Positions 1 through 64,000 of a stretch of 64,000 nt of DNA are shown piece after piece. Where the stretch lies: NCBI GenBank assembly GCA_965178125.1, contig OZ237762.1, positions 372,001 through 436,000 on the forward strand, in the 5' to 3' direction. Numbering within the stretch: the first letter of the stretch is position 1; every line of letters begins with the position of its first letter. The notes beneath the pieces were generated by a model that was given only the letters and a program-made list of their open reading frames with translations, did no database searches and had not been told where the DNA came from. This DNA comes from Bilabrum cf. latius. Its lineage: Eukaryota. Made by a program: the position numbers and the translations under genes.

Positions 1-147
1 AGTCGCGGAAGCGAGCATGCAGCAGCCAGGGGTGCTCATTCCAAGGGCGGCAAGACAATCGAGACGAAGGGATTCTTCACTCGGAAGAGCGAGGGTAGCG
101 GCAGCGGTGTTGTGAACATGGTGGATAGCGACAGAGATGATGATGGA

Positions 148-178
<31 letters not shown>

Positions 179-1116
179 TTGATGAATTTGACGCGGCCGT
201 GTCCGGAGCAGCAGCCAGCAGATCAGGCCGTGCTGGATCCAGCAGTGCCCTGCGAGCCATGGAAGACGAATTAGACGACATTCTCGGGCTAGGCGAGGAC
301 GAAGAGAGTCGAAATCGTGGTGATAGCAGCAGCAAGCGGCGCTCGCAATTCGCTGCAGGGGACACGCCGGAGAAGCGGCACGCAACGGATACTCGGTAGA
401 GCGCAGGGTCTGAATTGGACGGGCACGATACTGACGATGACTTGTTCCCCGTTACTTCGAGCCCCCGGCTGCCGGCACGTGATGCGGTTCACGGCCTGGG
501 CGGGGGCAGCACGGATGGGACTGGGAGGGGGAGGGGGGCAGTGACAAGCAGCAGCAGCAGCGGCGGCAGCAGCAGCAGTACGCAGGCAGGCGCTGGTGCT
601 GGCGGCATGGACACGTGGGGAGACTCTGAGGCCAGAGGGGTCGGATCAATCGATCAGATGGACTCTGAACGGACGGACGGTCGCGTGCCAGGTGGCCTAG
701 AGGACGTTGGCGGTGGCCTTGATCTCGATCTTGGCCTGCCGGGGCCCGGCGATATGCTCGCGATGGAAGCCTAGGATGACGCGCGGGCTGGCATGGAGGA
801 GACACGGGCCTACGCGCCTTCTGGCTCCGGGTCCTCTAGGCTCGCTGCGGCGCGTGACGCGAGGCGGCAGAGGATGCGGCAGGGAGCGGGCGGGTTGGGG
901 AACAGCGCTGGGGCGGGGCAGGTGGGCATGGACGGTGGCCTGGAGCTGGAGCTGGGGGGCGATGCCGCGGCGATGGGCAACGTGGGTGGCGCGGGGGCGG
1001 CAGGCTTCAAGTATTCTCAGGTTAGCGCTTCGGCGGGCGATGCCAGCCAGCGCCCGGGGAACAGTCAGGGCGAAGTGCCTGGCGCTGGTGCTGCTGCCAT
1101 GGACGATGGCCTTTAA
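1..1116 (+). CDS. 3' end of an unknown protein (acidic, Gly/Ser-rich low-complexity tail), 5'-truncated by the window
   Basis: Frame +1 is open from base 1 to TAA 1114-1116 except for TAG 397-399 and TAG 772-774. ORFs 112-399, 415-774 and 793-1116 share that frame and have continuous composition. Confidence 0.7.
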
Positions 1117-1428: not shown

Positions 1429-3528
1429 TCAGTCCATCTTGATCTGGCTGTAGATGGCCCTCACGAACGCGAGCGTGGACAGGAAACCGATGGCCCCAGT
1501 CATCAGGAAGAAGGCCCACGAGGCGATGGCCATGTACGCGAAGTAGACGAGCGCCGCCGTGCCGGTGGAGAAATCCAGGGCGAGGTAGTAGTAGTAGATG
1601 GCGTACAGGAACAGGTACCCCCCCGAGGCAGCGGGCGTCAAGAAGCTCCTCCACTGCCAGTTGGGATCTTCGTGCCCCAGGTGGAAGTAGCACAGCACGA
1701 TGGAGATCTCGGCGCTGACCACGCCCAGCGACAGCATCACCACGAAGAGGAAGCCAAACATGTAGTACACGTGGCTGAGCCAGACCGAGCTCATGATGAA
1801 CACGGCCTCCATGAACACCGCCCCGAAGGGAAGCAGCCCGCCCACGAAGATGCCGACCAGCGGCTGCACAAATAGGGGCGTGGGCACTGGGATCCGCTCA
1901 AGGTCGTTGGGCTTGATCACCGGCTCTACCTTGTCCTGGGTGAACCCGATGTACGCGCCCAGCGCCACCAGCGGTAGCGACACAAAGAACCAGAGGGCCA
2001 CAACCGCAAGGAGCGTGGTGAATGGGATGGCGGCAGACGAGTGGTAGTGCCACATGTAGCCGTTGACCATCATCACCACGGCCGCAACCACGCCCGGGAA
2101 AGCCACCCCTGTGAGGATCACGTTGCGCATCCACTGCCTGCCGTCGAACATCTTGTACACGCGGGAGGACGTGTATCCAGCGAAGCAGCCCATTGCCACG
2201 AACACGAAGATGAGGGCGGACAGCATCCCGCCCCTGTTGGCAGGCGACAGAAACCCTAGAACGGCGAACACCAGCACACAGGCAGTCATGAGGACGACCT
2301 GAGCGCCGCTGCCCACAAACACCGAGAGGAACATGGGCCCGAAGAGACCCCCTGGGGGGCGGAACACGTCCCTCCCCACGATCTTCCAGCCGGTCAGGTC
2401 GACGGGATCGTCCACCTCCTCGTTGTACCTGTCAAAGTCCTTGAAGAGGTGCCTGCGAAGGATGACCGCCACCATGGCGGACAGCAGCAGGACGATGAGC
2501 GAGCTGTTGGTGATGGCGAACCAGTGCACCTCCCTGTCCTGGTGCTGCCTCAGGTAGACGTCCCACCGGTGCGCCCAGGGGGTGGAAGTCTCCTGCCAGA
2601 TGACGTCATAGGTGAAGATGACCTCGCCGCCTAGGTCGATCCTCTGCTGTGGGAGGTCCCTAACCACGTCCTGGCCGTGATTGCAGGTGTCCAGCTGCAC
2701 CTCTGGCTGTGGGTCGCCCGTCTGGTGCTCCATCGGCCACACGTCCTCGTACTGGTGCTACACCGAGTAAGGCTCCACCTCCACCCCGATGATGTGGGCA
2801 GGGCGAGCCGAGGCAGGGACCTCGGCTCCGCTGCGGGCGGCTTCTTCCTCTGCCGCTGCCTCGTCGTCTTCTTCCATGTGATAGCTGACGATGAAATGGA
2901 TGTGGTTGTAGAGGTAATATGCGGGGCCCGAAGGCGTGTCCATCTTGTACCCAAGCGGGAAGGAGCGCTCGAGGGATGTGTCCGACAGGTCATCGGGGTT
3001 GATCAGCCGCACGGATGCTGGCATATTGTCCATCAACCAGCTGACGGTATACTCGTTCTCAATGAAATCGGCGAACTGGCTGCCCTGCTCCGCAGTGTAC
3101 TCCTTGCGGCAGAGAATCTTGCACCTCTCATTGATCTTCATCTGCAGGTGGTATCCACTAGGCTCAATCCTATCTCCCATAAGAACTTCTCCGAGAGTCT
3201 CCCTCTCAGGCGTGCCGCCGCTCGGCTTGCAGAAAGGCAGTGTGTAGAATCGGTACGGCATTTGCGTTTTCGTAGAGGTCAGCTTGTTCACCATGAGGGG
3301 CACCTGCAGCGCTAGGTTAATGCATCACACATAACACATAGTACAAGTCTAGCCCACAGATTCCGCCAAATATATATTACTTCCTTAAGGTGGTGCGCAA
3401 AATCAACCAACGTGTCTCACCTCATCGCGTCGATTGAATGAATGGGAAGCGACACCAGGCAAATAGAAAGGAGACGCCAAGCACGAAGTACCCCCAATTA
3501 CGGCCAGGAATGCTAAGATGCTGTGCAT
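1429..3528 (-). CDS. TM9SF: Transmembrane 9 superfamily (nonaspanin/EMP70) protein, about 660 aa; exons 3528-3421 and 3303-1429
   Basis: Signal peptide plus FYLPGVA...VPLMVNKLTS, LGEVLMGDRI, YLYNH, VHWFAITNS, GWKIVGRDVFRPP, GFLSPANRG, WQWRSF and the C-terminal IYSQIKMD. GT-AG intron 3304-3420. One in-frame TAG at 2758-2760 (EPYSV*HQYE). Ends TGA. Confidence 0.95.
3304..3420 (-). other. Spliceosomal intron (117 nt) in TM9SF
   Basis: GAG|GTGAGA...CTGCAG|GTG. Removal joins FNRRDE to VPLMVNKLTS in frame. Confidence 0.85.
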
Positions 3529-3721: not shown

Positions 3722-5230
3722 TCACGATACGACAGAGTGCGACGTCAAGCCGAGTACCAGCTCGCCTGTTTCAAGGAACGGCTGCTGCCCCGCAGCCGTA
3801 GCAGGCCCAGAGGCATTGCGACGGGCATGCTTTGCTGGCGGAACCAGCTTTGAAGATTCCCCATCCACGCCACTGTTAGTCTTGCTCTCACTCTCGCTGT
3901 TGCCATCGCCCTCGCACTCCACCTTGCTCTCTTGCTCCGCGACCACTGGCAGCCCTGAGCACTTGCCCTTCGACTTCCCGGTCGCAAAAGCGCCCCCGTC
4001 GCGCACAGCTGCAGCTGCAGCAGCGATTGCCGCAGATTCATCTGGCTGCGCGTCCATCGATCCAGTGCCCGTGGTGCCATCGGCGGCCCCCACAGAGCTG
4101 GCCCTGCTTGCCAGTGGTGCTACTCCTTCTCCTTCTCGTTCCACCGCTCCCGGCCGGCCCATGGTATCCACGCACCGCCCGATCACAATCACCGCAGGGG
4201 CTGCCACACCTTTCCGCGCCGCCACGTCGGCAATCTCCCCGAGCTCCGCACTCGTCACACGCTGCGACGGCAACCCGGCCCTCTCCGCGACCGCGACCGG
4301 CACCGTCGTGGGGTATCCCAACGCTCCCAAATCGCTCTCCAGAGTGCTGAGGCGGCCCACCCCCATGAGCATGACCACGGTCCTGGAGGGCGAGTAGCGC
4401 GGGAGATCTGGCATGCCGCCGCCCCTGTCCCTCCCTGTTGTGAGCAACACCTGGTTTGCCACTCCGCGGGACGTGACCGGGATGCCGGCGAGCATCGGGG
4501 CAGTGAGTGCGGACGATAGTCCGGCGACAAATCTCGGTTCAAAGCCGTGCTGTCTGAAAAACAATACTTCTTCGGCTCCCCTCGCGTACAGCAGCGGGTC
4601 CCCGATTTTTAGGCGAGCAACGCACTTGCCCGCTCGCAGCGCAGCAAGCCCCGCAGCGTTGAGACCACCCTAAATGCCGTCCGCCCGTCCTTTTGATTTG
4701 CGAGCAGCGACTAAAACCTCGCAATCCTTGCGGAATAGGGACCGCAGAGACTCGTCCACGAGCCGGTCGGACAGCACAACTTCGGCTCGAGCCAGTATGC
4801 CCACTGCTTCCAAGGTTAGCATGTCTGGTCGACCGAGCCCCGCACCAATCAAAAATATTTCTCCCTTTAGTCTCTTTTCAACGATGGGCTTGGCACCGAT
4901 CTCTCCAAGCTGCTTGGATTCGACTTCCTGGTGCTGCTGTCGAGCGATGTGCACCAAACGTGCAGCCTGCAGAGCTGCGTCAACAGCCGAGTAGTCCGAT
5001 GCACCGCTGTTTCTTTCAGAATATTCAAAGCTGGTTGAGCTCATCGTTGATCGTGAAACGGCTGGTGCAAGCTATGCTTTGCCCGGTTCGACCTGCAGTC
5101 GACGAGGCGCCGTGGATTCGGCAGACTCCGCAGTCGATGAGTGGGATAGCAGCCTGTACAGGACTACAGACAGTGCAGCTCCGGCTGCAAATGCTCCAAA
5201 CAATCGCAAATTCTCGATCTGAGACAACAT
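3722..5230 (-). CDS. Uroporphyrinogen-III C-methyltransferase (SUMT; CobA/Met1/CysG-A type), about 502 aa, with an N-terminal hydrophobic segment and a low-complexity C-tail
   Basis: IFLIGAGLGRPDMLTLEA, VVLSDRLV, VARLKIGDPLLYARGAEE, AGIPVTSRG, TVVMLMGV, PAVIVIG. In-frame TAGs at 5072-5074 and 4670-4672. Ends TGA. Start taken as the first in-frame ATG (5230), which is uncertain. Confidence 0.9.
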
Positions 5231-5580
5231 TGCTGCTGATTTTTTAACCTTTCTAGCAAGTTGACGTCGTTCGTGTGCATCGTCACCATTTTGCACTCCG
5301 GACGGAAGATGAAACGCAGCCTTGCGACCAACATCATTTGAAGATGAACTCAAACAAGTAGACCCCAGGGCTAATCGTCAAGAATGCCAGGCGCTTGATG
5401 AAGCTTTTCAAGTATAGCCCAAAATATATGATTCAAAGGGGTAATATTTGCTGCGAGGGTCGGCGCAGCTGCAGAGCTCAAGTGGATGATCGAGCGCGGC
5501 CCGGGAGCTGCCATGATGGAAGGGGTGAGGTGTGTCTATGATACTCTCGTACACTCCAGATGCATACACGGACAAAGAGC

Positions 5581-8500
5581 TCACGCCCACGCTCCGTCGA
5601 CACCCCCAAATTCACTCTCCCTCTCTTTCGCCTCCCGCGCTTGCCGCGCTTCTGCCATGCGAAGCACTCGCGCCGCTTCCTCTCTGTGAGCCTCGTGGTC
5701 CTCCCAATCCCATAGCATAGCACGAAGACGCTCGGGCAGCACGAGCGGTGGAGGCGGGGGCAGGCCGGGGGGCCTCTGTGTGAGCAGCGCATGCCAGCCC
5801 TGCCCCAACGGACGCGGCGGGCAAGACGCAAAGGTGCCAGTTGACGCCTCCTGCTGATACATGGCCAGCAGCCGCCGCTCAAGCGCATCTTCATACGGCC
5901 CACGGGCATCAAGCCAGGCGCTGGCCGGAGGCCGGCCTTTTTTAGAGGGAGGCACCACCCTGCCACCGGGTCTCGCACCCGCGCCCGACGCGGACTCTTC
6001 GTGGCCTCCATCACCTCCCTCCGTGGGCGCGCTGTCCACACCCGCTGCTTGCGCGCCCTCTAGATCTACAGCCCCCGGGGCCAGCTACCCCTGGAAGCCC
6101 TCCTGGTCCTCTTTGCCCCTTCCTCGCTTTTCCTCTGCTATCGCCCGGAGGATCGGGTTGTTGTTCGACCCGCGCTTGCTATTCGCGCTGGAGCCGCCCT
6201 GCTGCTTTTTCTTCTTCTTCTTCACGCTCACCCTCCCGCTGGTGCTGCCCTAGATGCTGCTGCTGCTTCCCGTGACATTGCCACTCTTACCGTATCCCGA
6301 CGAGGGGGCCACACGACCTGCAGCACCACCACGGCCCGCACTGCCACCACTGCCACCGTCACCGGCATCGGCGGGCCCGAGCTCTCGCATGTCCAGGGGC
6401 AGGTAACCCCTTGGCACGCCCTCCCTCACGATGTGACCGTCACCCACCAGCTCAGGAGAGCGGATGATTTCCTGCACGGCCGCCTAGCTGTGGCGATCCG
6501 AGGACCCTCGAGAGCCCAGCGCCATCACGGCACCCAGCGACACCCCTTCCTTCGTCATCGCGCCCGGCTGGAACTCCGGCCAGGCCCCATCGGTAAACCC
6601 ACGAAGCATCCGAGCCAGCCACTGCTCCCCGCCAAGCAGCAGCGTGTTGCACGTCAGCAGCTCCGGCTTGCCCGTGCCGAACTCGCGGTCCTGCTCGTGA
6701 CCCATACCTTTACCCTGGACCGACAGACCCATCCGCTGCCAGATGGTCCGTGGTGCATTCACGGTGGTGTTGATCGCCACTCGAATGGGTGCCAACACGT
6801 CCTCCTCGCCCTCACCTCCAGCAGCCGCGTCCCCTGAGCTCTCCGCAGCGGAAGACGCGATGGCAGCGGCTGCCGCTGCACCGGCATCCCTCCATCCCGA
6901 CGCACTCGTCACACCACCCATCGCATTCTCCCTGGTGCGCAAAGCCAGACCCACCAGACGGGCCGACACGCGAGGGTCCACATCGTGACCGTGCTGTGCC
7001 ATGGCTGGGCGCAGGCACCCCGGAGGCAGCGCCAGTCGGTCGTCATGACCACCGGTCGACAGAAGGCTCAGTGGGTCGCACGGCGGCAGCTCTCCCGGAC
7101 CTCCGACGGCCCGCAGGGCATCTGCGCCAGTGGCGATGCCCTGCATGGGATCGTCGCCCAGGCCCGGGAGTCTGCCTCGCAGCCTCGTGGACGTGCTAGG
7201 CCGCAAGCTGCCTGCAGACCCGGGTGGAGTGGGCGCCGGCCCATCGGATGCGTGCCCCTTATCGGCTCCGGCTCCACTGCCCCCAATGGTGCCCCCCTAC
7301 GCTTCGCCGGCTTCTTCTGCTGCAGAGGCCAGACCGGCCGATCGCGCTGGTTCCAGCAAGATCGCTTGAGTGTCGCCTTTGCCCACCCCTTCGATCCGGT
7401 GTCTATTCTGCTAGCCAAGCGATACCAGGACCCACGAGCGCATGGCTGAAAGCCGCAGCAGCCGCTGCCGCATCGCCTCCCTCACGTGCACCGGCAGCCT
7501 TCGCACCACCCGGTCTCGATCCCGGGATTCTCCGTCCCCGCGGGTGGACACCTCGCGTAGAAACGTCAGGCCACCACTCGGTGCTGCCCCACTCAGAAGG
7601 GCCCTTGCCTCGGCCAGGGACGAGACCCGTGTGGCACCTTGCGGCAGGGAAAGGGGACCCCGTTGCACCGTTCCTCGCAGCAGCCCAGCGGCCTTGGTGG
7701 CTGCGTCCGTGCGGCGGCTCTGCTTCGATTGGACGGACGGACCGTCACTTTTCCCGTCCATAATGTCCGCACCGCGGCTCAAATCAGACCCTGCGTCACT
7801 CGCAGCCGCTTTGGCCACATCCTGCTGCGACTCGCCTAGCATGCGCAGCAGCTGCGCGTTGCTTCCAAGTCGACACAGCTCCGAGATGGCGAAGAGGCAA
7901 GCCTGCTGCGTCTCTCTGGGCAGACTCGTCGGCACGTCCCTTGCTATGAGCTCCGACATGAGAGTGACAGCACCCTGCGTGCCCAGCTCGCCGGACAGGG
8001 GCGCGCTGCGTGCCAGAGCCCCCACGCACCGCGCAACCGACTGCACGATATCAACGTCGTCCGGGTACCGCCTCGCGCCTCGCAGCAGCAAGAACACAAT
8101 GCTGGGGAGCTCCGCCACCTCCAGATCCAGCAGAGACACGGGGCTGCAGTTGACGGGAGCGCAGCACGAGTGGGGCTGCAAGGGGTCATCCGGAGGTTGC
8201 AGCTCCTCGAGCGGAATCCCTGCCGTGAGGCTGGCGCCTGGCGGTGCTTCTCCTGCCCTCCTGCTTTGAGTGCCTTCATGAGGGCTTGTGCCCACACCAG
8301 TGAGCGGAGTCCCAGCCCTGTGTGCCTGCGGACTGGCAGCCCTGCCACCCTAGGAGCTAGTGGTAGTCCTGGTCTGTGGGCCAAACGTGGCTTCTGAGCC
8401 ATCACCGAATGGTCGCCGATGCCTGCCCGCGATTGGACCGCGAGATGGGGACCCGGACCCAGCTGCCCCTGCCCCTGTTCCTGCGATTGCCGCGGGCGTC

Positions 8501-11181
8501 CCAGGTGACACGGCATTCGGCACGGCGGCAGGGGTCCTCGCATGGTACTCGTTCAAGGCTTCGTCACCTGCCAGACCAAGCAACAGCTAGATAGTGGACT
8601 TCTTCGGAGGCTAGTCGTCCCCAGCTTTCGAATCCGGATCCTGATTGCCACTTGTGCGTCTTTTGCTCTCGCTATCGCCCCCTTGCTGCTTATCCTTCGC
8701 TTTAGCATCGTATTCAATACCGGCTCGACTGGCGGGGCGGGTACCTGATGGACTCTGCGCTCGTGCAGTCTGCACTTGACCGCCTAAATCGCCTCGATCC
8801 TTATCCTCAGCACTGCTGGGGCGGCTGCTGCCGGAGCCAGCACTGCCGGGGCGCAGCTCGGGCTGCATCCATCCTGACTCGCCCCTCCTGGCTGCCTGCC
8901 TAGTGGCCGCCATGCTGGCATACTCGTCGTCGCGGCTGGACACCGCCTTTGCGCTCTTGCCCCGGAACAGCCTCGGATCTGGGGGAGGGCCATGACCCAG
9001 GATGGTGGCTAAAGTGGCCATGACGCACCTGAGCGCCCTTCTGTGGTTGCGGTGGTACCGCAGCAGAAGCAGAAGCAGCTCAACATCGAGCGTGTGCGTG
9101 GCCATCGGCAGCAGAAGCTCTAACTCCGGCAGAGGGCACGGGTGTTCTAGCATTAGCTCCACGGCGCCCTCCCTGCTGCGCTGCAGTGGAAACCTCCTCC
9201 TGCGCTCTGCGTCTCGGCTCCACCACCACTCGCACACGGCCTGAGGAATCGCCCGCAGGGCAGGGCCCGAGGAGAATGGACCGGCCACAGGCGCCTGCCG
9301 ACTGCTGAACTGCATCTGTGCCGCGCCCCCGCGCCAGCCTCCTGCCGGGAATGCAGCATCGCACTGCAGCGCAGCCGTAAGCATGGCGTCGTTTCTTTTG
9401 CCAGCCAGCACTAGAGCATCACTGGTCAGCCTTGATACCTGGGGGCGCGAATCCTTCGATGCAGCTGGAGCTCGTGACCGGGCCTTCTGGCCTCGGTGGT
9501 GGGGGCTCGAGTAGGCAGCCGGGCCGAGGGTGATGGCCTGTGCAGCAGGCAGAGACCTCTTCGCGAGCGCTTCTTGAACTCCAGCGGCAGCCCCGTTCCC
9601 CGCCCGCAGAATGCGCGGCGCCAGTTCCGTTTCGAAACCGAGCAGCCTCGCCGTTCGCCTCTCGTCGGCCTTGAGCTGCTCCCATGCCACCTCCCGCCTC
9701 AGCTCAGACGTCCTCTTTCGAGTCTCCAGGCGACTCAGGTCGAGAGCTAGCCCGCCGCGAAGGGCAGCAAGCTGGGTGCCCCCTCCTTCCTCCTCTGCCT
9801 TCCGTGCCGCCCTACGCCTTCGGATCTCCCTTCTCCGCTTGGCCGCCTGCTTCTTCTGCGCCGCGGACAGCTTCGATTTGGCGCCGTCCTTGCCCAGCGT
9901 CAGACCAGCTGCACGCGCGAGAATGAGTCTGTCAGCATCATCCAGAGGCTCATCGTCATCCACACCGAGCTCCAGGGCGAGGTCATCCTCACCTTCTTCA
10001 CCCGAACCTCTCTTGCCCTAGTCGCCCTGTCCAGCTGCTCCTCCCCTGCTCGACCCGACCCCGTACTTGCTCTTCGGCTCTTCACCAGGCAGGCCCCCGT
10101 CGCCTCCCTCCTCTTCAGCAGCCACCCGCGCGTCTTCTTCCTCCCAGGCGGCGGCTTCTTGGTCGTTGCCGTACCCCTCCCCCTCGTCGTCGTCGGAGTG
10201 ATCCCACCCATTCCAGGCGCCCTCTACTCCGATCATCTGCTCGGCACCCGGAGCAAATCCAGAGACCCCTTTCTCCCGCAGCATGGCAGCCTCTTCGCTG
10301 CTCCTCGTATCCCCGCCGCCACTGCCGCTCCCGCCTCTGCCGTTGCCCTTCCCGCCGCCCCCCACATCGATCCCCTGAGGGCCCAGAGACACAGCTGCCC
10401 CCAGCCTCTCCTGCACGGCCTCCTTCTGCTGGCGGTATCTTCGAGTGGCTGATTCCTGCTCGGATAGGAGCCTCAGCCTGCGCAAGCGGGCCACTTCCGT
10501 TTCGACTGCGTGGCTCGAGTGGGTGAGCGGCAGTGCGGCTCGCAGTGCCTCGATGACTGCAGGCGGCGCGTCCGATTGCAACAGTCGAGTTTCGCCGGCC
10601 CCTGGAACAGCGGCTGGCATCGTGGCGCCATCACCGGATGGCTTTTCGATGGAACTTTCCTTCTGATGCCGGACAGGCGGCAAGTTTACGAGCGGGACGC
10701 ACAGGCGCCTAGCCGCGGCGCGCCATCGCCACACTCCGCGTAGCGCTGCTCGCAATTCAGAGATGGCCAGCACAACGTCTGGGCGGCGACTGCTGGCTTC
10801 CGTAACCATCGCTCTTTCAATAGCATTCAATCCTCGCAACATTCCAGCTTGTAGGCACTGTTGCCGCGCAGTGTCGGTTGGCTCAGCCACGAGGACCGCA
10901 AGCAGCCGGCACCCATCTGTAGTGACAGGGGCAGCATACGTGCCATGTCGTTTCAGAGAATCCATCACAGCCAAAGGCACATCCAGTTTGACCATTTCTT
11001 GGGCCATCCACGCTGCATCATCGGGTTCTAGCTCTTGTAGTAAGGATACGAGCTGATGCAGCCCTTTCGCCTGCTCCACTGGATCTGTTCTACGCAGCCA
11101 CAACAGTCGAAGAGTCCGACGAATGAGCTATTTTTCCCGCAGTTCACAAACGTCTTGGCATGCTGAAACAAGAAGACCCAT
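5581..11181 (-). CDS. Large helical ARM/HEAT-like protein, about 1,866 aa, with N-terminal MGLLVSAC myristoylation-type motif; function unknown
   Basis: Seven listed ORFs share one frame. The only interruptions are TAGs at 11128, 10018, 8611, 8587, 8350, 7411, 7297, 6484, 6250 and 6085. Ends TGA 5581-5583. ARM-like segments include VPLAVMDSLKRH...GCRLLAVL and IVQSVARCVGALAR...GAVTLM. Confidence 0.75.
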
Positions 11182-11456
11182 TGCGGCGTGCTGATTGCTC
11201 CCAATGCTTGCAATCCGTTGCGTTAATGAAAACAAAAAGGGGGGGCCCTGGCCCTGTTACGATCGAGACTGGGTCGTCTCAGTAACTCATGTTAAATTGG
11301 AAGTCAGCGGCAACTGTGGAAAATGATTCGACCCCCTTCAGTGGCAGGTTTTGATCTGGCTGCGCATTCGTCAGCTGCAGCGACCACAAGCTGATGAGCA
11401 CATGGTCGCAAGCCCCACCATCTGCCCACGGCGCCTCATGAAGCCAAGAGTGACAT

Positions 11457-18083: not shown

Positions 18084-18195
18084 AGATCAGGCGAAAATCA
18101 AGGATCTGTTGGCTAAGTGATGCAAAATGTGGTTCAGCCCCGTCCACTCGTCACCGCGAGCAGAGCAACGCAAATTCTTTGACTTCACAGGATAT

Positions 18196-19074: not shown

Positions 19075-19117
<43 letters not shown>

Positions 19118-20088: not shown

Positions 20089-20151
20089 CTGCGAGTTGCA
20101 GCCGTGTAAATCGGATATGACAGGGCATGCAAAGAGTAAGGTTACGTAAGC

Positions 20152-21040: not shown

Positions 21041-21075
<35 letters not shown>

Positions 21076-21783: not shown

Positions 21784-21927
21784 TTACTTTATCTGATGCG
21801 GCAACACGATGCCAGGTGCTGCCCAATCACAATGCAAAACAGATTGGATTGTGAAACATTGCTGTGCTGTTCAACATTAGTTAGGACCAACTCGGAATTC
21901 TGGAACTATTGCTTCCTTGCCATACAC

Positions 21928-43659: not shown

Positions 43660-44092
43660 GGTCAATGGAGCAGTCTGCGTGGACAAGACTTTGATCATAA
43701 AATACTGTATCACAGAAATCATTGAAATTGCGCCTGCAGGGATTTGCCGCTGTCACCAGGTTGCCAGATCCACTGGTGGACCCTAAAGGCAACTGCAAAG
43801 AGCGGACCCGCTCACACGGTGTGTTGGCATCGACGCATCGTGCTACGTGCCCAAGTATGTAGAGAACGGTAATCCATCAGGAAGTAGCTCGACTGTCGCG
43901 ATTCGTGCCATGAGGTTATGCTGCTGTCCTGCGGGAATCCTGTCCGTTCGGCCGGTTCGCGGTCGCGTCCGCCGGCGACAGGCGGCATGTGATGAGTGCA
44001 CGTCTCACATCCACGTTGTGGCTCGTTTCGATCAATTCTGACCATCTTCAGCGGTAGTTTATATGTTAATATTGTAAAGGTATACTTATTTA

Positions 44093-45942: not shown

Positions 45943-46814
45943 TTAGACCTTGAAGGTGTACGCGAGGCAAAGGATGGGCTCGCCGTTCTGGTCCGTCCAC
46001 GAGATGGTGCCCTTGAGCGTCCCGCTGGGCGTGTCGGCGGGCACCTCATCGGTGGCCGAGGAATCGATGCTGCCGGACAGGGGGCAAGGAGAGTCGCCGC
46101 CCTCCAGCGTGTCGCAAAGGTCGTCCTTCTCGTTCACAACCGGGAAGCCGTCGAACGAGGCCTTGTACTTGGCGGTGCCGCTAGTCACCTGCAAAGTTTC
46201 GAAGATGCGGGTAAACGTCAGCAAATGAGCGGTGAGCTTGCAGAGGGCAGAGAACCCAATGCTTGCACGACCAGAGCAGACAAAAATAAAAACCAAACAG
46301 TTGAATTGGAACTAGCCACAGAAGCTTGCTGACACTCACGGTCTCATCGAGGTCGTAGATGGTGTGCAGCGTGTAGGTTTCCCCGATCTTGGGGTCGGTG
46401 GGATCGATCTCCACCACCAGATTCTTGGCATGAGCGTCAGAAGGGGTGCAAGATCCGTCCATGGAGAGCCTGCGGGGGCCCGCAGCGCCGGCGCGCAGCT
46501 TCCTGGAGCCAAACTGGGCCTTGATGGCCGGGATTGCCTTCTCGAGGGCCATCTTCATCGGGTTGAGAGCGCTAGCCTGCGCTAGAGGTAACCCAAGCAA
46601 GTTGGAACTTTTGCATACATTAATACTCTATTTAGGGTCAGATATAGACGCTTAGTGCCGAAACAGTAGCATACGCAGCACCGAAAGATGCTCTGAAAGA
46701 AAGCTAGCGGCAGTATACGATGATGCACGCAGTACCTGTATTAGCGATTCTACCAAACAAACTTACGCTGACAAAAAGGGCAGCCATGCATGCAATCGCG
46801 AAAGAGGCCTTCAT
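45943..46814 (-). CDS. ML-domain (MD-2/NPC2-like, PG/PI transfer) lipid-binding protein, about 176 aa; exons 46814-46767, 46576-46340, 46188-45943
   Basis: Signal peptide MKASFAIACMAALFVS, SC...VEIDPTDPKIG, DDLCD...CPL.G, P.DTPSG, WTDQNGEPILC. Introns 46577-46766 (GTAAGT..CAG) and 46189-46339 (GTGAGT..CAG). Ends TAA right at the domain end. Confidence 0.88.
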
Positions 46815-53400: not shown

Positions 53401-56400
53401 GGGTCTCCTTCTTCACCGACGGCATGCGCTACAACAAAAGAGCCTAGTCGATCGCCCAGGGCCAGCTCATACACGGACTTCTTTCGTTTGGAGCCGGCGC
53501 TTGCCTTGCCGCTTGAGGCAGCTTGCTTCCGAGCTGCTTTGTCCTCCTCTGCCTTCCGTTCGCTTGGCAGCTTGAGCTCGTCGGCAGCTCGCTCCTGGGC
53601 CCTTGTTGCCATTGCAATGAATTCGGCGGCCACAGAGGCATCCACCAGCCGGATACCGAACCTCCTGCGGCTCTCCGGCCTCGCAGGGAGCATCGGTGCC
53701 GCGTGTCTCTGCTCCCTCAATATCTCATCCCCGCTCAATCCCCCGAAAAGTACCGCGTCAGAGCCCCCGCCGCCGTCCCCATCGTCGGCCAGGACAGCCC
53801 AGCTGGACCCGGAGCCGATGGCACCGCCCTCACGCACGATCTTCTTCCATGCCCTGCCTTGTGGTGGTGAGCCTGCGCCAGTTGAGGACGCGCCCAAATC
53901 ACCGTGTCTGCTTGTTTGCAGCTCAGTCAGGTCTACCACACGAGCTTCCTCAGTAACATTTGACTCTGGTCGAGGAGTCTCTAGATCTAGGTCTGCCTGC
54001 TGCGAGCCTGCTGCAAGGAACGTCTGCAGAGAATCGACACCTAGAGCAATGCCCAGGTGCGCGGGTGGTTTCCCTGGTGTCTTGTATAGCTCCAAGTCGA
54101 GCCCGGCAGGATACTGCATGGACTGCTGTCGATCTGCAGTCCTGGCTCGCAAACGCCTGCTTGCAGAGGAGTAGTCTGCCCCGCCAGGCGACATAATGGC
54201 GTGGCTGGGTGCGTACACCGGGCCGTTGTCTGTGTGCTCTGAACCAGCATCATCGCTGTTGTCCCCAACAACTGCTGATGCGCCAGTTGCAATCACTCCA
54301 TCCGTGCCAGCACCTGCGGCTTTGCCAGTGTCCTCCGCGTTGCTCTGATGTGTCTCTTCGGATGGGAGCAGCCCAGGCGCAAACAACATGCTGGCGTGCT
54401 CGTAGCCGAGGCGCAGTGGCCTGGAAGTCAGCCTGGTGGAGGGGTGCCACAGCGCCTCGTCGGTATCCAACGGCCCAAACACTGGAACTGCATTGTCTGC
54501 TGCCGCAATCTCGTTGGCAGTTTCTCCCCTGTTCTTCATGATGGCGATGAGCGCAGTCACGGCCCCGTCGGACACGACCTTGGATCCACCCTCTCGGCCC
54601 GCAGCTGGCAGCTGAGCGGCAGAAGCTGATGCGCCTCCACCAGCACTGCCGGCTAAAGCTTTGGCGTCCGCAGTCGCCGTATCTGTGAAACCGTCGATCC
54701 CCAGATCCTTGGCCAGCTGCAGCCTCGCTGCTTGAGCTGCGGCCAATGCCTCTTTATCCATCGCCCCGCTGTCTTCTTCGTCGCTGTCGCTCTGAGCAGT
54801 CGCCTGGTCCTGGTCGATTGCCAGCTCACATAGAGAGCGCAGGCAGGCGTTCCTGAGCTGCTCACTGCACCTGGGAGAATCGCTCACTGTGATAAGGGCA
54901 GTGGCCACTCCCAGGCTAACCAGGAGGGAGCGGCTTGAGGACTCTTGCGAGAGATTGCAGAGCACTTTCGCGGCGTCTGATCTGGACGTGAACTCAAGCT
55001 GCTCTGCAGACACGCGCGCATCCTCCAGCCCGTGAATGGTTCTCAGCAAATCGTCCACGGGAGACTCGAGTGTCGCCTTGTTCTCTTCAGCAGTGGACGC
55101 ACTGGGCTTTGAAGGCTAGCCGCCCGCGTGCTGGTGGTCTTCGACCGCGGCCGGCATGACATCTCGCAGCTCAAGCAAGAACCCGGTGGCCAAACTGCCA
55201 TGAAATGCGGCACGCAGGCAAGGTAACAGCTCGGGCCGGTTGTCGACCCCCTCTGTGGCAAGCCGACCGGCCGCCTCGAGGGCGATCTGGGAGCTATTCG
55301 GCCTCCTGCTGCGGTTGCTATCGCCCCGCCCATCGCCCTAGGCTGCGCCTTGCACGTTGCTTGCAGGCTCGTCCAAGCGGTTGTCGAGGGCGAGCGCCAT
55401 TGGTACTTTAAACACCGCCAAACGTTCAGCCAGGTATGGTGCCAGGCTCGGCGGGGGCGGAGATCTGCGCATCTGCATTCCTTGCCCGCTGACCGCGCTG
55501 ATGTGGTCAGCTATGCCGCCTCCGGAAGCGCCTGCCGACTTCACATCACTGCGAGAACCATGCCCAGAAGAGAGCCCATCTGCCCGGGAGGAGTTGTGGC
55601 TGCCGAGAGCTGCAACCGGAGGTCTATCGTGCTCTCCTTCCAATCCAACGTCGTCGGTCTGGTCTGCTTCGTTGCGAGCACTATCCGAGCCCTCGTCCAT
55701 GGTCTACTAATCCTCGCTGTCGGGCTGCCCATCAGAGGCGCTACCGTCTTCTACAATAGAGCGGTGTGCAAGGTCAACGGCCGAGCTAATTTCACTGCCT
55801 CTGCCGTCAGACTGTTGCGCATCAGCACCGCCCGATGCCTGCTTCACGATGGCATCCAGAAGGGGGGCGGCCTTCTTCGTACCCAGCTCGAACCGCACCG
55901 CAGGAGACGCACTGAGAGCTCGAAGGGCGGCAGACGCGCGCATCGCGGTACGGGGCTGGAGGTGCTCAGAGGAACCAAGGACGGCTCCAAGTGCGCCCAG
56001 CACTCCTCCCCTGATCAAGTACTTGACGAGGCCCTTGTGCAGAGCAAGGGATGTTGACAGCGAGGCGGCATCGTCAGCGAGTGCTTGAAGAACGTCGGTC
56101 AGCTTGCCTGTCGCAGCCGTAGACAGGACCCCGGCATTTTGACTGGATAGAAGCGCCCTCACCGCGGCACAGCCGGTCACACAAGCTCTAGCCGCCGTGG
56201 CAAATGGCGTGAACGAGTCCTTGGGAAGCAGAGGCAAGGGCTTGCCCCGCTTGCGACGCTGCATTTTCTTGGGGAGTGCCGCGGGCAGCAACTCGAAAGA
56301 CCAGTGCCTCTTTGTGGAGCTAGCCACCTCGGCATCAATGCTGCCACCTTCGACTACTCGCGCATGCGCCGCGCCATCCTCGCCCATGGAGCCGCCTTCG

Positions 56401-59400
56401 GCGGTCTATGCGCCCGATTCGCCAGACTCGGTGCCCCCCGATGCAGCCTTGGCCGCGATGTACATATCCTTCACGGCCTCGTCGTCGTTATCAAGGGCTT
56501 TCAGGAGGTACTGCTTGCCCCTGCGGCTCGCGGCGATGTTCGTCATTGCCGCCATGGCCAGCATGGCTGCGTCACTGTCGCGCTGCAAAGCCAGCACCGC
56601 CTCCGCCTCGGGGCTATGCCTCGAGTCTTCCCCCGTGCTCCCAGAGGCAACGTGCCCCACGTCCGGCACTGTTGTGTCCACGGGATGGCGCCGGGCCAGT
56701 GCCGCCCCTGTCCGCGCAAACCGAGCCAGGATACTCGCCATGGCAGCCACTCCTCCGTCCCGCAGCAGAGGTGTTATGTCACCTTTGAAGCAGCTGGCGA
56801 AGTGCAAGGCTGTCGCTGCTGCAAGCCTGTCCTCGGGCGACGGCCTGTTGGCAGCCATTCCAAAGACTCTGACTGCACCCGCGCCCAGAATGTCCTTCCG
56901 TTGCTGCCGATCTGCTGCCCAAAGCAGGTTGACGAGGCCGAGCAGACAGAGGCGGCGAGTGGCATCGGTCTCAATGTCCGAGCATCCAAGACGGACAAAC
57001 ACGTCCACGGCACCTTCTTCGGCGACCCTCTTCCGCACGGAAGATTTCGGCGAGCAGCTCAGATTATAGAGGCCCTGGGCGATGCTGGGCCTGAGCCTGG
57101 AGGCCACGCTGTCAATATCGCGCTCTGTTGGGTTGACGGATTCGATGGAGTTGAAACCGTGTACCATCTCCTCCTCGCCCTCGCTCGCTTTGTCGAGCGC
57201 ATCAACGTCGCCATCCGGGCGTGATTCGCTTGCAGGCTCGGGGCCGGCCTTGCTGGCGTCAGATGACTCTGCTTCCGTGGTCACGCCCAGCTTCGGAGGG
57301 ACTCGCTTCCTCCTGGATGGAGGAGGGGGGACAGCGACTAGCTGCCCCGTGATCTGGCTGACCCGCCTGCGCGTCGGCCGCATCGACCCCTTGCTGTCTT
57401 TGCTATCCTTCGACGATCGACTGCCGCCTGACTTAGTGGATGCGATGGACAGCTTGCTCCCGCTGGCAGGCCGCGATGACGTTGAGGCATGCCGGCCAGC
57501 TGGCGGTGGAGGCATCTTCTGAGCGAGGGCTACCCTGCTCTGCGACGGGTGTAGCGCACCAGATGCACTCGCCTGCCTTGAGGCGCGCCTCTCCTCTGCC
57601 ATGAGGCTCATATCACAGAGCATGACAAGGGCTTCTACCGCGCCCTCGTGCACCAGTACCTCTTCGTACCCGCGCTCCCTTGAAACAGCGGCCAGCACGC
57701 CGGCCAGCAGCGCGCTCACCGCACCGTCCACCTGCTTCGCCGGCTGAGTGGTGTGGAGCGCCTTGGGCGGTTGGATGGTGTCAGAAATCCCAACGACATT
57801 GCGACGAGGAGTCTGAGGCTCCCCTTGCTGCTGCCGGATCACGCTCCGAATGGCAGTGGTCGCGTCCACCTTGAGCTGGAGCTTGCCCACTTTCACGGGC
57901 TTGCTGGCATCAATGTCCCCGAGGTGCTTCATGCCCATCTCCACGAAGCTGTTCCTCCTCTGCGTCTCCCTCTTGGCTAATTTTGCGGAGTATGCCTGCT
58001 CCTTGGGACCCTGCGTGCGGTCGAGCTGCTCCATGATTCTCTCGCTGCGAATGTGCCTAAGCCTCTGCTTCGCCTGCAAGTTGCCGTAACCCTCTTGCGT
58101 CTCCGCCTGTGGGCTGCCGGCAGCCGAATTGTGCAACGCCGGAGCAGAGGCGAGGCGATACTCAGAGCTGACAGAGCCAAGCACGCTGCCGGTGTCCCTC
58201 TCGACGTCAATGCTGGTGTCGATGCCTTGTGATCCGCCTGCGACGCCGCTGGCCTCGTGCTACTGCCTCAATACCGTGATGACAGACCGAAGTGCCCCCT
58301 CGTTCACCAGGCGTGGCTACGCTTCCTTGTCCAAAGCAAGCTTGTGGAGCGTTTCTGCGCACGCCCTCTGCACCTTGGCGTATGGGGAGAGGCACAGCTT
58401 CTGCAGCAGAAACACGATACCGTGCTCTAGGCATTCCTGTCGGCTGACTGGATCTGCCATAATGTTCTGCAGCGCTTCGATTCCCATGGCCTATGAGTCC
58501 TCATCGTGAGTCCGTACGATCGCGACGGTTAGGAGAGCTTCCACTGCGCCAGCATCCACGAGCTGCCGCTCGCTTCCCTCGATGAGCGACAGGTTGAACA
58601 TGCTGGCGATTGCCTCCTGCCTGACCTGCTCCGTCATGCTCGAGCAAAACTGCACGAGGACGGGCACTGTGGCTTCTCGTAGCATCATCTGTGCCATCAC
58701 CGGAGCCCGTGACAGTTCTCGCAGCGCTACCGCGACCCTCAGCCTGACCGGATCGCGGTCAGACCCAAAGTTAGCGAGCGCCTTGAGAGCCCTGAGCACG
58801 CCCTACCTCTGGTTGGTAACTCCAGTACCCTTCGAAGCGGCACTAGGCTGGATGTCTCCCGCTGGATACGTATCACCCTGGAACGGCCTGCCGGTCTAGC
58901 TGGCCATCTCACCCAGGCCATCCGGGCCATCCGTGGCAGCAATGGCCCCTGCAGGGGTGTGACCAATCCTAACTGCCATCGCACCCTCCACCACGTCACC
59001 ACGCTCCGCAACCGCGCTCCTGGGCCTGTCAGCCTAGCTACTTGCCCCACCGTCAGGGCCAGCCGGGGTCCTTGCATCTGCAGAGGACAGCTGGTCAATG
59101 TCAAACGAGCGCTGCAGATCTGCAGCTAGGTAGCACAGCCCAAGGGCGCACTGCTGCCTTGCTCGCACAGCCAAATGCTCCAACCGGCCCTGTTCCTTGA
59201 GCAGCGCGGGGTCCACGTCGCCCTTGACACCTTTGAGACCCGTCTCGGGCTTGCTTGTCGTGACCCTGCCACCATCTATGCTCACGGGGCCGATCCTGGC
59301 TGGCGTTGCAGACCTTGATGCGACAGATGCGGCGCTGGAACGGCGACCGCTGTGTCCGGCAAGCGCCCCGCTAGCCGTGGATCCGCGCTCTGTCTCGGCT

Positions 59401-62400
59401 ACAGAATTCGGCGACCCCGGCTCCGCGTTGCTCGCGACTCTAGACCGTCCGCCGAGGCCACGAGTTCCCGGTGATTTGATCCCCGACCGGCCTCGGAAGC
59501 TGAGCAGGTTCGGGTTGCTGGCACTATGATCCTCCCCGCCAGCCACCTCGGATCGGAACGAGGAGATGCTAGCAGCCGTGGGTACTCGCATGAGCGATCT
59601 AGGCTGCTGGGTCGGGGCAGCCACCGGGGAACCAACGGGGGCCTTGTCGACGGGCATGTTGCCTGTCCCATCCTCGTGCTGCTTCTCTCCTTCCTCCAGT
59701 TCCTGTGCTTCGGCGTCGGGCTCCACGGCGCTCGTCAGTGTGCCAAGCGCATCTTTCCGGATCTGCGCCGTTCTGAGCGAATCCTCGTGCATCTGACGCA
59801 GCAGTCGCAGAGAGTACGCCTTAGATAGGGCAAGTGCCGACATGGGCGCATGGGCTGCAATGGGCACGAGAGCTGGCAGCGTGCCAGCGCGCACAATCGC
59901 GCGCCTGCACGACTGCGACCTGGATAGCCCTGCCACAACACGTACCGCATCCACGATGATGGGCAGCGGCAGCAGCGTGCTACTTGCGCTAGTGCTTTCA
60001 TGCAGATGCTGCAGAGACGTTGTCTCGTCCTCGGATCGATCTTCCATCCCACTCACGCTGCCTCCCAGTTGCGACTATGGCAATCCATGTCCTGTGCCCT
60101 CAGGCACGTCAGTCTCGCCTACAGCAGCAAGCCTAGGCGCCTGGTGGTGCAGGAACTTGGCGACTGTTGGACCGTCCCCGAGCGCCTCGCCCTCCAGTCC
60201 TACTGGAGATGCGGCCGAGGATTCGCTGATTGAAAAGAATCTTCCCTTGGCCCTACGAGCCTTGATGCTTTCCGCCGCGTGCACAACGATGGAAAACAGC
60301 CGATGGCTCACGTCCTGCTCGTTCACGAGACCACGCACCAGCTGGAATGGGTCGTTCCTCCTTGGTGCCAAGACGTGCATCATCGCACTCACCACACCAA
60401 GACGAACCATGATGCGAGACGCGAGTTCCCCGCCTCTGGCAGGCTTCTGGCCCTCGCTGAAAGCAGGCCCGCGCTGATCGGTGCCATCAGTCTGCTCATC
60501 TTCTGGTTCCTCGAACGTGCAGAGGTTTCGCAGCGCAGCGATGGCGAAGCTGATCACCTACACGGCGCGCTGGCAGAGGTGCGGCGCAGGTGTGCCGTCG
60601 GCCAGTGTGGGCCCTTTGCGCCTCTCCCGGGCCATCACGATGGCATCCAGAAGCATCTGCTGGCGCAGCTTCTCGTTTTCTTCTTCCTGCTTCCTGCGTG
60701 CGATCAGCGCCCGCTCCTTCTCCTCGTCTTCGAGTTGCCCGCCGACAACCGACTGCGACTGCGACTGCCCAGTGAACGTAAGCACCGTGTGCCTTCGGAC
60801 CGTGGGTGACTCAGGCGAACGCCCCGAAACACCCGCACTAGGCTCAGACGTCGACGTGGACTCCTGGTCCGACGCGGCAGGCGCCGGCGCGGGTGGCGGC
60901 TGCAGCGTGCGATACGCGATGTCAAGCAGGTGAAGAAGCGTGCGCACACCATCCCCAGTCGCTGTGCCAAACCGCTTCTGCCCCTCGGCCTGGTCCTCGT
61001 CCTCACCTGCGGATGATTTGCGTGCGGTATTTTCAGCGTGCCGCTCCTTGCTGTCTCTCGAGAACGGCACCTTCGAGATCGATGCTCCCGAGTCTCGGCG
61101 GCCGGTTTGTTCGCTCGTGTCCCCAGCTTCGCTCTTCAGTGCGTCGCCATCCAGCGGCTTTGATCGCGAACCCTTACCGCCGCGCTACTCGCCTGTTGCT
61201 GGTGCCCGGGCCTTAGGCAGCTTGACGTCGCCAGAACCCCGAATCAAATATTTTTTTGTGGAATCGTGGCAGGACAGGTTGTACAGGACATTTGCCGCCA
61301 GTACTGCCCTTTCGTCCAGGTCAGTAGGGAACAGCGCGCCTACGTACTCTTCGTAGGCCTTCGGGTCCCTCATCTTCTCGCCGCGGAGGTAGTACCGCGC
61401 GTGCTCCGGGGTACCGCGTGGTGCGAGGGGGTCGCCAACGTAGGCAGACTGATTTCCACCTCGAGTGCCTGACGCCACGCTGGATGAGTCGTCGTCGTGC
61501 ATCCCGGACGCCTCCTGAGACATGCGCCTCCCGCGGTTTTCTCCTCCCCCTTGTGCAGGAAGGGGACTTCCCATGGTGGTTTCAGCATGTACGGGCGGCT
61601 GGCAGGCCTTGGCATACCGCATGACAGCAGCGGTGATTCCCTGCTGACAGGCTCGGCTTGCCGTGTCCTCGTCCCCACAAGCCCTGGCGGCAGCGAGTAA
61701 ACACATGCGCGTGACTCTCGAGTCAGCGTGACAGCTGTCAAGCATGTGCCCCACCGCAATGGCAAGGCCATGTCTCCACGCCCACCCCGATTCGTTGTGG
61801 AACGATATGCGTCCGATTGCGACCGCCATCTTGCGAAGCGTCTTGCGCGCCCCGAGCACGGTCTACATCTAAGTCACAGCATGCGCTGCAATAAGCGCCT
61901 GTGTGTCCGTTGTGGTTGGACTCACGCATTGGGCTGCCGCTGCAGCATCTGCCTCAGATGGATACGAGCGCCCTCCATGCTATCCAGAGTGGCTCGCGCT
62001 CTGCACGGCAACACCAGTGGCGGACTGTTCCCCGAGCTTGGATGCGCGCCCGCTTGCGCCTGCAAGATCCGTTGAATCCGCGCTCTGACCGTGCTCATCG
62101 TCTTCGATGGACGCTTCCAAAATCTTGTCATCTTCCAAAGAGGAGTCGACAAACTCACGGGAGGCACCGCCGCCGCCGCCGCGGTTACCGTGCGATCCCA
62201 TCGGTGTGCGTGACCCTAGTCCCGCAGGCTGCGAGTTCTGCCTCCCGAACCCGTGCGTCTGCAGCCGCAGCCTCCTCGTGGCGGCCTAATATTTCTGATA
62301 GTACTAAGCAAATGCACTTGCGGCATTGGATGCCTCGACGGCGTGGTCCGCATAGCTGGCCGCAAGCGGCTCCATGGCGGGGTCTCCGGGTGCCCTGCCC

Positions 62401-64000
62401 TCAGGGCCAAAAGGACCCGACAGCTCCGTGATGGCAGGTACCGCTTCCGCAAACGCCCTGCCGCAGTAGCCCTTCAAGGCGCTTGTGATTCCATGCCTTG
62501 ACTGCACCAACCTAGTGAGACCTCGCACACACCTCCGCAAGATCCACGACGCAAACAGGAGGCTAGAAGAGTCCAGATCCGAACTGGCTGTGGCTTGGGT
62601 AGGAACAGCAGCGTCAGCCTCAAAGTCTCCACTCCCGTACGATTCGGCGTCCTAGTCTTCGCTTGCTACGCTTGACTTGGAGTGCTTGCGCTGCTTTCGC
62701 TCTACATCCGCTCTCGAAGAAGCCTTGTGCGCATTGAGCAGGGCGACGTAGCACAGACGGATGGCATCGCAGAACATATGCGTGACCCCATCTGCACTCA
62801 GCTTGTTGAGCGCTACCGCCTGTCGAGTAAGAGGTTCTGCGATCCTCGCAGCTGCAACGCACTGCAAGCGGGGACCCAGCCAAAACCACGATCCACGCAA
62901 GTCGTTCACAACGCTTGAAGCCAGCAGGGCCCTCCGCCCTGCGCCTGGATCACAGGCGATGTTGGCCAGCGCCTGCACGGCGCAGGTTGACACGAATGCA
63001 TCACGAGCGATGGTGCGCCTGCTCGGGCTGACGCCCTAGGCCTCTTCGTCTATCGAGACCGGTCGCAAGAGCCCAAGAATCGCAGGCACGCCCATGCCTC
63101 GGGCCAGAACGGGTCGATTACTGGGAGATGTGCTGAGGTTATAGAGAGTGGTGGCCAGCAGGCACCTCATGCTGCCCTGTGCGCGACGGGAAAGGTCTGC
63201 CAGGGCGAGCACGACGGGCGAGTCGAGCGCAGAGGCAGCCAACTCTGCCTCGCTGGCGACATCGGCAGCAGGCGTACCATCTGGCAAGCAAGTCAGCTGG
63301 ATGCCAGTCATGGCGGCCACATTGGCAAGCACTGACGGAAGCGGCTACTGGATGGAAGAGAGGTTGGCCAAGGCCTCGGCGCATTCGTGCCTCGTGCGCG
63401 GGCTGTCCGAGTCCTTCACAACCCTAACGAGTGCGTCCAACGCACCCTCTGCCAGTATGCGAGGCCTGTTCTCCGCCTGTCGACTGAGGTCCCGGATGGC
63501 CCTGGCACATTCCTGCCTCAGTGATCTTTGCATGAGCTTGGTCGCGAATCGCTCGTCAAGCACTGGCCCGCCCCAGCCGAAGCTGCGCCTGCTTGATCGG
63601 ATCTTCCTACCACTCGGGCCCACCTATGACGGCCTGCGGATTGGCTCTCCGTCCCTCACAAATGTAAGAATATCTCGCTCGCTGGAGCCGGGGATGATGC
63701 CCGAAGACCTCTTCTTCGTCAAGCCTCGCCTGGGAGCGTCAGTGGAGAATACTTGCGTCCCTGGTGCTGCGGGCTCGTTCTCCTGCGCCTTTGCGTAGTA
63801 TTCCATCGCAATGTGCTCGAATTCGGCCTAGCCGTCATCAGCCATGCCGGTGGGTATGTCCAGTCCCACGATGCTGTCCTTGCTATCTTTACTGCCTGCT
63901 CTTGACCTCTGGGCGTACGAAGAACGGCTAGCCGGTCGGTCAAATAGGGAACGTTTCGAGTCTTTCCTCATGGAATGCCTGCCTCGACTGCTGCTACCAT
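47409..64000 (-). CDS. Giant armadillo-repeat protein with C-terminal IQ-motif repeats, at least 5,530 codons, 5'-truncated by the window
   Basis: Twenty listed ORFs lie in one frame. Every interruption checked is TAG (32 counted) and the frame ends at TAA 47409-47411. ARM repeats include RILAEGALDALVRVV...RHECAEALANLS, QEAIASMFNLS..QLVDAGAVEALL and AQGLYNLSC...VAEEGAVDVFVRL. Confidence 0.85.
48203..49175 (-). repeat. 174-bp (58-aa) coding tandem repeat, about 5.6 copies, each with an IQ calmodulin-binding motif (IQAVARGRAAR)
   Basis: The anchor ggcctggatgcgagc recurs at 48285, 48459, 48633, 48807, 48981 and 49155, an exact 174-bp period. Confidence 0.92.

Follow-up and report, generated by a model that had tools for sequence, protein, structure and literature searches.

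Evidence for UAG as a glutamine codon in the nuclear genome of an intron-poor protist

Analysis of a 64,000-nucleotide (nt) stretch of nuclear DNA from Bilabrum cf. latius (contig OZ237762.1 of assembly GCA_965178125.1, positions 372,001 to 436,000 of the forward strand; here called the window) revealed TAG triplets inside the reading frames of most of its genes. The nuclear code of this organism very probably reads UAG as glutamine (Gln, Q), with UGA (mainly) and UAA staying stop codons, which corresponds to NCBI table 15.

Reading frames and their terminators

Open reading frames (ORFs) in the window were defined from stop to stop, with TAG read through and the first TGA or TAA taken as the end. 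This yielded 19 ORFs with a total of 19,150 codons, among them 99 in-frame TAGs (0.52%), and 16 of the 19 contain at least one. No internal TAA or TGA occurs in any of them; TGA terminates 16 and TAA three. Under the standard code, the longest ORF has 663 codons. When TAG is read through, the longest ORFs comprise 5,529, 2,209, 1,891, and 1,702 codons, compared to a maximum of 859 codons upon read-through of TGA and 663 upon read-through of TAA. Since the six-frame average triplet frequencies of TGA (~1.27%) and TAA (~0.32%) predict about 300 of these triplets in 19,150 codons by chance and none was seen, chance is rejected as an explanation of the open frames. The reading frame never shifts, and the sole triplet that interrupts it is TAG, not TAA or TGA. 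The GC content of the window is 60%. UAG is a sense codon in the window genes and is found in frame throughout ordinary protein genes.

In-frame TAA or TGA is also absent when the window ORFs are combined with the open frame of L001, a related metagenome contig described below (0 in 24,119 codons). CAA and CAG are present in the window in a ratio of 86:383, and about 22 in-frame TAAs would be expected if TAA mirrored TAG as a glutamine codon. Because none was observed and three ORFs end in TAA, the code is not one in which UAA and UAG (UAR) both encode glutamine, and a code of the table 6 type was rejected. A code with all stops as sense or context-dependent codons, of the Condylostoma or Blastocrithidia type, was rejected as well, given the lack of in-frame TGA and TAA and the maximum of 859 codons upon TGA read-through. 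Furthermore, one of two paralogues of the PAQR/HlyIII family ends in TAA and stops where its TGA-terminated sister stops. Genes are still terminated by UGA, in most cases, and by UAA.

These counts are close to those of an earlier note on this DNA, made from the sequence alone, which had reported about 98 in-frame TAGs in 17 of 20 genes. Its statements that internal TAA and TGA are absent and that all genes end in TGA or TAA hold for our ORFs, and its proposal of a sense UAG agrees with the lengthening of ORFs from 663 to 5,529 codons by TAG read-through alone. The retention of UAA and UGA as stops, also claimed there, is borne out by their absence from the frames of both the window and L001 and by the ends of all 19 ORFs.

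The alternative that survives best assigns two meanings to UAG, i.e., glutamine inside genes and a context-dependent stop near some 3' ends, and is likened to the stop codons reported in Condylostoma and Blastocrithidia. That all ends are TGA or TAA follows from the ORF definition, under which an occasional termination at UAG would not show; a terminating UAG just upstream of the first TGA or TAA would escape it. TAG is indeed present 9 to 23 codons before the end of three ORFs, encoding an MFS transporter, a RING-finger protein, and the product of 41878..43752. However, there is no enrichment toward the ends, with two TAGs in the last 11 codons compared to about 1.1 expected under a uniform spread, and the Pfam match of the IPK1 gene extends beyond the last TAG of that gene. 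Moreover, the TGA or TAA that closes the EMP70 and HlyIII ORFs lies where their homologues or paralogue end, and UGA is a common terminator (16 of 19 ORFs). A second meaning of UAG as a stop is therefore improbable.

The amino acid at UAG

The longest ORF of the window (47409..63998, minus strand; 5' end open) has 5,529 codons, 32 of them TAG, and ends in TAA. A search with this giant protein returned three matches, P0275, P0276, and P0277, and the metagenome contig L001 was reached through P0277. L001 comprises 14,907 nt with 60.7% GC, and one of its frames, 4,969 codons long, is open from end to end and contains 40 TAG, 0 TAA, and 0 TGA; the two other forward frames contain 12 and 27 TAA and 83 and 113 TGA, respectively. 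The product of the open frame is 56% identical to residues 195 to 5023 of the giant protein (~4,800 residues).

Sites in the alignment of both proteins were considered conserved in context if at least 8 of the 12 flanking residues were identical. The 14 window TAGs in such a context are paired in L001 with Q (nine), TAG (two), A, E, and K (one each), and the 17 L001 TAGs with Q (seven), A (four), TAG (two), S, G, E, and a gap (one each) in the window. In both directions together, TAG stands opposite glutamine in 16 of 26 pairs. A likelihood test, in which the substitution pattern of each residue was taken from the same alignment, placed glutamine 69, 70, and 41 bits (log2 likelihood) above the runner-up at flank thresholds of 6, 8, and 10, respectively. 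At these thresholds, the rate of pairing between TAG and Q was 0.58, 0.62, and 0.82, compared to a conservation of true glutamines of 0.64, 0.74, and 0.82. The partner codons of window TAGs are CAA (five), CAG (five), TAG (two), and others (five), and those of L001 TAGs are CAG (eight), TAG (two), and others (seven). From the pairing rates, likelihoods, and partner codons, TAG therefore behaves in the window and in L001 alike as a codon for glutamine, a trait that the two genomes share across this divergence. We consider this sequence comparison the decisive part of the proposed glutamine assignment.

Single sites in other relatives are consistent with this assignment. Residue 1147 of the giant protein (TAG at 60558..60560, minus strand) is Q in both P0275 and L001, and all 12 flanking residues are identical; P0275 is 57% identical to the giant protein and shares eight identical residues on either side of this position. 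The MFS transporter gene (39924..41873, minus strand) contains six TAGs, including those at 40428-40430 and 41166-41168, and an exhaustive search with its product returned 1,808 relatives. One of them, P0125 (96% identical), has Q at TAG 40428-40430 with identical flanks.

We also scored curated profiles with TAG read as ten different residues (Q, E, K, L, Y, W, S, R, H, and A), five of which were used for the MFS_1 and cyclin profiles; the remaining ten residues were covered by our own hidden Markov models (HMMs) and by the likelihood test with L001. The gene for IPK1 (inositol-pentakisphosphate 2-kinase; 21766..24159, plus strand) has eight TAGs, including one at 22816-22818 in the motif CP_NNVRVF, and its product scored best against PF06090 with Q (36.6 bits), followed by H (33.1), K (32.6), R (32.5), E (31.9), S (31.6), A (31.4), L (29.9), Y (29.7), and W (29.1). 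For PIG-H (26473..27363, minus strand), with two TAGs at 26905-26907 and 26812-26814 that both lie within the Pfam domain PF10181, Q (33.2 bits) was again ahead of K and H (29.8 each), R (29.4), E (27.5), S (26.6), Y (26.4), A (25.9), W (25.5), and L (25.1). The uroporphyrinogen-III C-methyltransferase (SUMT) gene (3722..5377, minus strand) contains two TAGs, one of which (4670-4672) is located at the conserved glutamine of the family and aligns to Q in solved structures (1v9a and CysG chains). Its product scored 185.2 bits with Q against NF004790, compared to K 181.4, R 181.1, E 180.9, H 180.8, S 180.5, A 180.3, Y 180.1, W 179.7, and L 179.5, and 174.5 bits with Q against TIGR01469, with K next at 170.8. 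Summed over the IPK1, PIG-H, NF004790, and Sugar_tr profiles, Q reached 345.3 bits, K 333.6, and H 333.5. In these sums, glutamine led K, H, and R by about 11 bits and L, S, Y, W, and A by at least 17 bits.

The glutamine assignment made in the earlier note is thus in agreement with the profiles, the SUMT structures, and the pairings in P0125, P0275, and L001. Its claim of a TAG at a conserved glutamine in SUMT was confirmed by the structures and by the top score of Q against NF004790. The corresponding claims for three sites in IPK1 and for PIG-H stood in part, since Q scored best in both families but only as a sum over the respective TAG sites, and for the cyclin the profile (Cyclin_N) was flat across the residues scored.

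Several results weigh against glutamine. Ten of the 26 conserved-context pairs with L001 are not Q, including five with A. Broad profiles were uninformative about the residue, with neutral or other rankings: TP_methylase places W, H, and Y above Q, Sugar_tr places L first for the single TAG of the MFS/sugar-transporter-type gene (24364..26145, minus strand; stop TGA), MFS_1 places R first, and Cyclin_N does not discriminate. The single TAG (2758-2760) in the main exon of the EMP70/TM9SF gene (1429..3324, minus strand; stop TGA; first exon upstream of an intron at 3301-3417) lies in a lysine-dominated column, with K 88, R 9, H 7, and Q 5 among 120 relatives listed, and K (+1.8) exceeds Q (+0.9) at this site in an HMM built from 119 homologues. 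A neighbor-context classifier ranked K slightly above Q with K, Q, R, and T not separable, although this classifier is weak and placed true glutamine sites first in 46% of trials. Finally, the column of the MFS TAG at 41166-41168 holds F 33, Y 3, L 1, M 1, and one gap in 39 homologues, and our own HMM scored F at +3.9, Y at +2.5, and Q at -2.6. A relative with 94% identity, P0141, likewise has a stop at this site, the one TAG in disagreement with glutamine, which we read as a lineage-specific substitution.

The Phe/Tyr column of this MFS site, the Lys column of the EMP70 site, and the slight lead of K in the context analysis are the points in favor of a sense UAG with another meaning (Lys, Glu, or Tyr) or of ambiguous decoding by near-cognate tRNAs. 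In the comparison with L001, in contrast, glutamine lies 41 to 70 bits above every other residue, the profiles prefer it by the margins given above, and where the flanks are conserved best, both near-identical and distant relatives show Q. Decoding as another residue is thus very unlikely.

Transcripts, decoding, and relation to known codes

Contigs assembled from four public sequencing runs, rather than raw reads, were compared with positions 1-20000 of the window, and none of the runs showed a differing letter. The DNA run X1 yielded a single unspliced contig (586-19024) of even depth in which both introns of this region are kept. Contigs of X5 and X7 skip 3301-3417 (117 nt, EMP70 gene) and 17801-17887 (87 nt, bromodomain gene). 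The joints are 3300->3418 and 17800->17888, with GT..AG on the coding (minus) strand for both introns, and the depth in X5 and X7 is very uneven from gene to gene. Because of the two intron-less joints and the uneven depth, we take X5 and X7 to be transcript assemblies. The run labels, which are guesses, speak against this for X5 ("probably DNA") and are doubtful for X7 ("RNA?"); neither run is on record as RNA, and the RNA status derives from joints and depth.

In the spliced contigs, which extend over 1176-3300 and 5457-18102, there are 0 differing letters and 25 TAG codons, i.e., one in EMP70, 10 in the 1,891-codon ORF, and 14 in the bromodomain ORF. Since these TAGs are kept unchanged, editing to CAG, removal of TAG by splicing, and assembly error are contradicted for these genes. 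In the spliced transcripts of these genes, as assembled, UAG is retained as such. CAG in the reads and edited or spliced-out TAGs, listed beforehand as possible contrary findings, were seen neither in the four runs nor in the spliced contigs. For the view that the TAGs are not translated as such, owing to assembly or sequencing error, RNA editing to CAG, intron pieces, or pseudogene decay, we found no point in favor, and the identical letters in four runs, the 25 TAGs kept in spliced contigs, the never-shifted frame with interruptions by TAG only and never by TAA or TGA, and the same pattern in the independent metagenome contig L001 leave it a negligible probability.

Reading of UAG as glutamine would involve a tRNA-Gln with the anticodon CUA, or an equivalent decoder, and an eRF1 that has lost recognition of UAG and kept that of UAA and UGA, both of which are described as established for such codes in the available part of PMC5304391. 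On the opposite side of the balance, ARAGORN found no tRNA gene in the 64-kb window, and the eRF1 gene is not located in it. A search of Rfam gave no RNA family match in the window or L001.

The best relatives of the EMP70 protein are a EukProt transcript and Cafeteria roenbergensis, with 50 to 54% identity. The stramenopile Cafeteria is the nearest named relative among the 120 listed, and no ciliate or fornicate sequences are present among the named ones of these. A quick maximum-likelihood tree of EMP70 places the window, on a very long branch, beside Cafeteria with a Shimodaira-Hasegawa-like approximate likelihood ratio (SH-aLRT) of 89, within a set of eight sequences (99). The MFS gene has few named relatives, which are choanoflagellates and Phalansterium with ~41 to 43% identity, and the ESM Atlas yielded no taxa of use for placement. 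From the one EMP70 gene, the organism is tentatively placed as probably a heterotrophic stramenopile near the bicosoecids.

According to the available parts of PMC11687900 and PMC5304391, reassignment of UAG alone to glutamine occurs in Iotanema, in Protocruzia, and in two phyllopharyngean ciliate lines, and UAG encodes leucine in one rhizarian (exLh) and serine in Scotinosphaera. The portion of PMC5304391 at hand lists UAR codes for glutamine in some ciliates, ulvophytes, hexamitin diplomonads, oxymonads, and Amoeboaphelidium. As described in the accessible text of both papers, Iotanema spirale (a fornicate of the Metamonada) is a non-ciliate eukaryote with the same variant as proposed here, UAG for glutamine with UAA and UGA as stops. 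In contrast, the window belongs to a different supergroup by the affinity of EMP70 to Cafeteria, and it has 60% GC and is intron-poor. The phyllopharyngean ciliates (two origins) and Protocruzia tuzeti also combine UAG as glutamine with UAA as a stop, as far as the available part of PMC11687900 goes. The window differs from them in its EMP70 relatives, with no ciliates among the named ones, and in having long genes and GT..AG introns of 87 to 117 nt.

In exLh and Scotinosphaera, UAG is likewise uncoupled from UAA in the nuclear code (PMC5304391 and PMC11687900, available parts), but leucine and serine lie at least 17 bits below glutamine here and fit the context poorly. The UAR codes share the change from stop to glutamine, presumably via a mutated tRNA-Gln according to the text available from PMC5304391, whereas UAA is not a sense codon here (0 of 24,119 codons) and terminates three of the 19 ORFs. 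TAG is also read as glutamine by crAss-like phages with code 15 (available part of PMC9523058); those are bacteriophages, and the window is spliced eukaryotic nuclear DNA.

UAG as glutamine with UAA as a stop is hence a known code variant, and the lineage is apparently new. In full-text literature searches, with subscription journals outside their coverage, we found no such report for a stramenopile or the related groups searched. We lean slightly toward an independent, undescribed reassignment of UAG to glutamine in a clade of protists that have GC-rich genomes with few introns and may be related to the bicosoecid stramenopiles. The independence of the change draws on the tentative one-gene placement beside Cafeteria together with these literature negatives. 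Because at least one environmental relative with 56% protein identity has it as well, the trait characterizes a clade rather than a single strain. If this reading is correct, the reassignment would mark the first change of a nuclear code among stramenopiles. A description of the code of this organism may be in preparation, as the sequencing runs (X1-X8) are dated 2025.

Nuclear codes that split UAG from UAA are rare according to the available part of PMC11687900, and they bear on the discrimination of UAG from UAA by eRF1 and on codon capture. UAG makes up 0.5 to 0.8% of codons in the window and L001 despite the 60% GC of the genome. An additional origin in a non-ciliate genome rich in GC, with the trait also present in a wild relative, would supply one more independent case and might offer a system amenable to culture. 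There are also consequences for annotation, since standard-code gene calling shatters the genes of this organism and degrades automatic annotation. The database fragments P0005, P0125, P0141, and P0276 are pieces of genes of this organism or of near relatives, cut at TAG by standard-code callers, some with a false start: P0125 ends exactly ahead of the next window TAG, P0141 exactly ahead of another, and P0276 (92% identical to the giant protein) exactly ahead of a TAG as well. Table 15 should be used to annotate this genome as well as metagenome bins of its relatives.

Gene content of the window

The window encodes eukaryotic protein families, namely, EMP70, SUMT, bromodomain, RING, IPK1, MFS, PIG-H, V-ATPase subunit d, PAQR/HlyIII, and cyclin. 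The giant gene exceeds 5,529 codons, is still open at the window edge, and has no detected introns. Pfam gave no match in three fragments related to the giant protein, the protein itself not having been scanned. Near its C terminus, a 174-nt tandem repeat is present at 48203-49172 (5.6 copies, 97% identity), whose Ala/Glu/Lys-rich units contain the sequence IQAVARGRAAR, which we take to resemble an IQ motif. Directly ahead of the first repeat unit, the codon for residue 4941 is TAG in the window, and L001 has TAG at the position aligned with it; later repeat units have Gln at roughly the matching position.

The ORF for a multi-bromodomain protein (11457..18086, minus strand) has 2,209 codons with 14 TAGs and ends in TGA. 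Its 87-nt intron (17801-17887, minus strand) is a multiple of three and without a stop codon, so that the unspliced frame stays open and ORF-based gene models would wrongly include it. The adjacent ORF of 1,891 codons (5581..11256, minus strand; 10 TAGs, stop TGA) is without a Pfam family. One X5 contig of 12,559 nt (5457-18102) extends over these two genes, which share a strand, and over the 200 nt that separate them; possible reasons are an overlap of transcripts or transcription that reads through from one gene to the next in a compact genome.

The ORF of 1,702 codons (27620..32728, minus strand) contains six TAGs, ends in TGA, and encodes Ser/Thr-rich repeats and a C-terminal membrane segment. 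A 24-nt tandem repeat within it (28667-28947, 11.7 copies) encodes a Ser/Thr/Pro-rich stalk of TASPSSSI units, and with its C-terminal membrane anchor the predicted product has the look of a surface protein. Smaller ORFs with TAG and a TGA stop encode the RING-finger protein (18121..20088, plus strand; four TAGs), an Arg/Ser-rich protein (20152..21783, minus strand; one), and two products without a Pfam family, of 603 codons (34977..36788, plus strand; two) and 624 codons (41878..43752, minus strand; six). An acidic low-complexity ORF with an open 5' end (1..1116, plus strand) has two TAGs and ends in TAA, and a possible 20th small gene (45943..46335, minus strand) would add one further TAG.

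A search of the PDB gave no usable match for EMP70, IPK1 (DARPins only, E of at least 0.027), or the bromodomain protein, and a search for IPK1 homologues with X at each TAG found none among 7,999 scored candidates.

No TAG is present in the main exon of the V-ATPase subunit d gene (33023..34267, minus strand), which has at least one more exon, probably at 32760-33437, or in the two PAQR/HlyIII paralogues. EMP70, which has the highest GC content at third codon positions (0.85), contains only one TAG, and we therefore propose that highly expressed genes may avoid TAG. The paralogues (37314..38255, plus strand, stop TAA; 38469..39371, minus strand, stop TGA) are convergent and arranged tail to tail (37314-39371). 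Finally, a cyclin-like ORF (44078..45460, plus strand; two TAGs, stop TGA) harbors a GCTGGT microsatellite at 44840-45360 (87 copies, 98% identity) that reads as a long Gly-Ala run.

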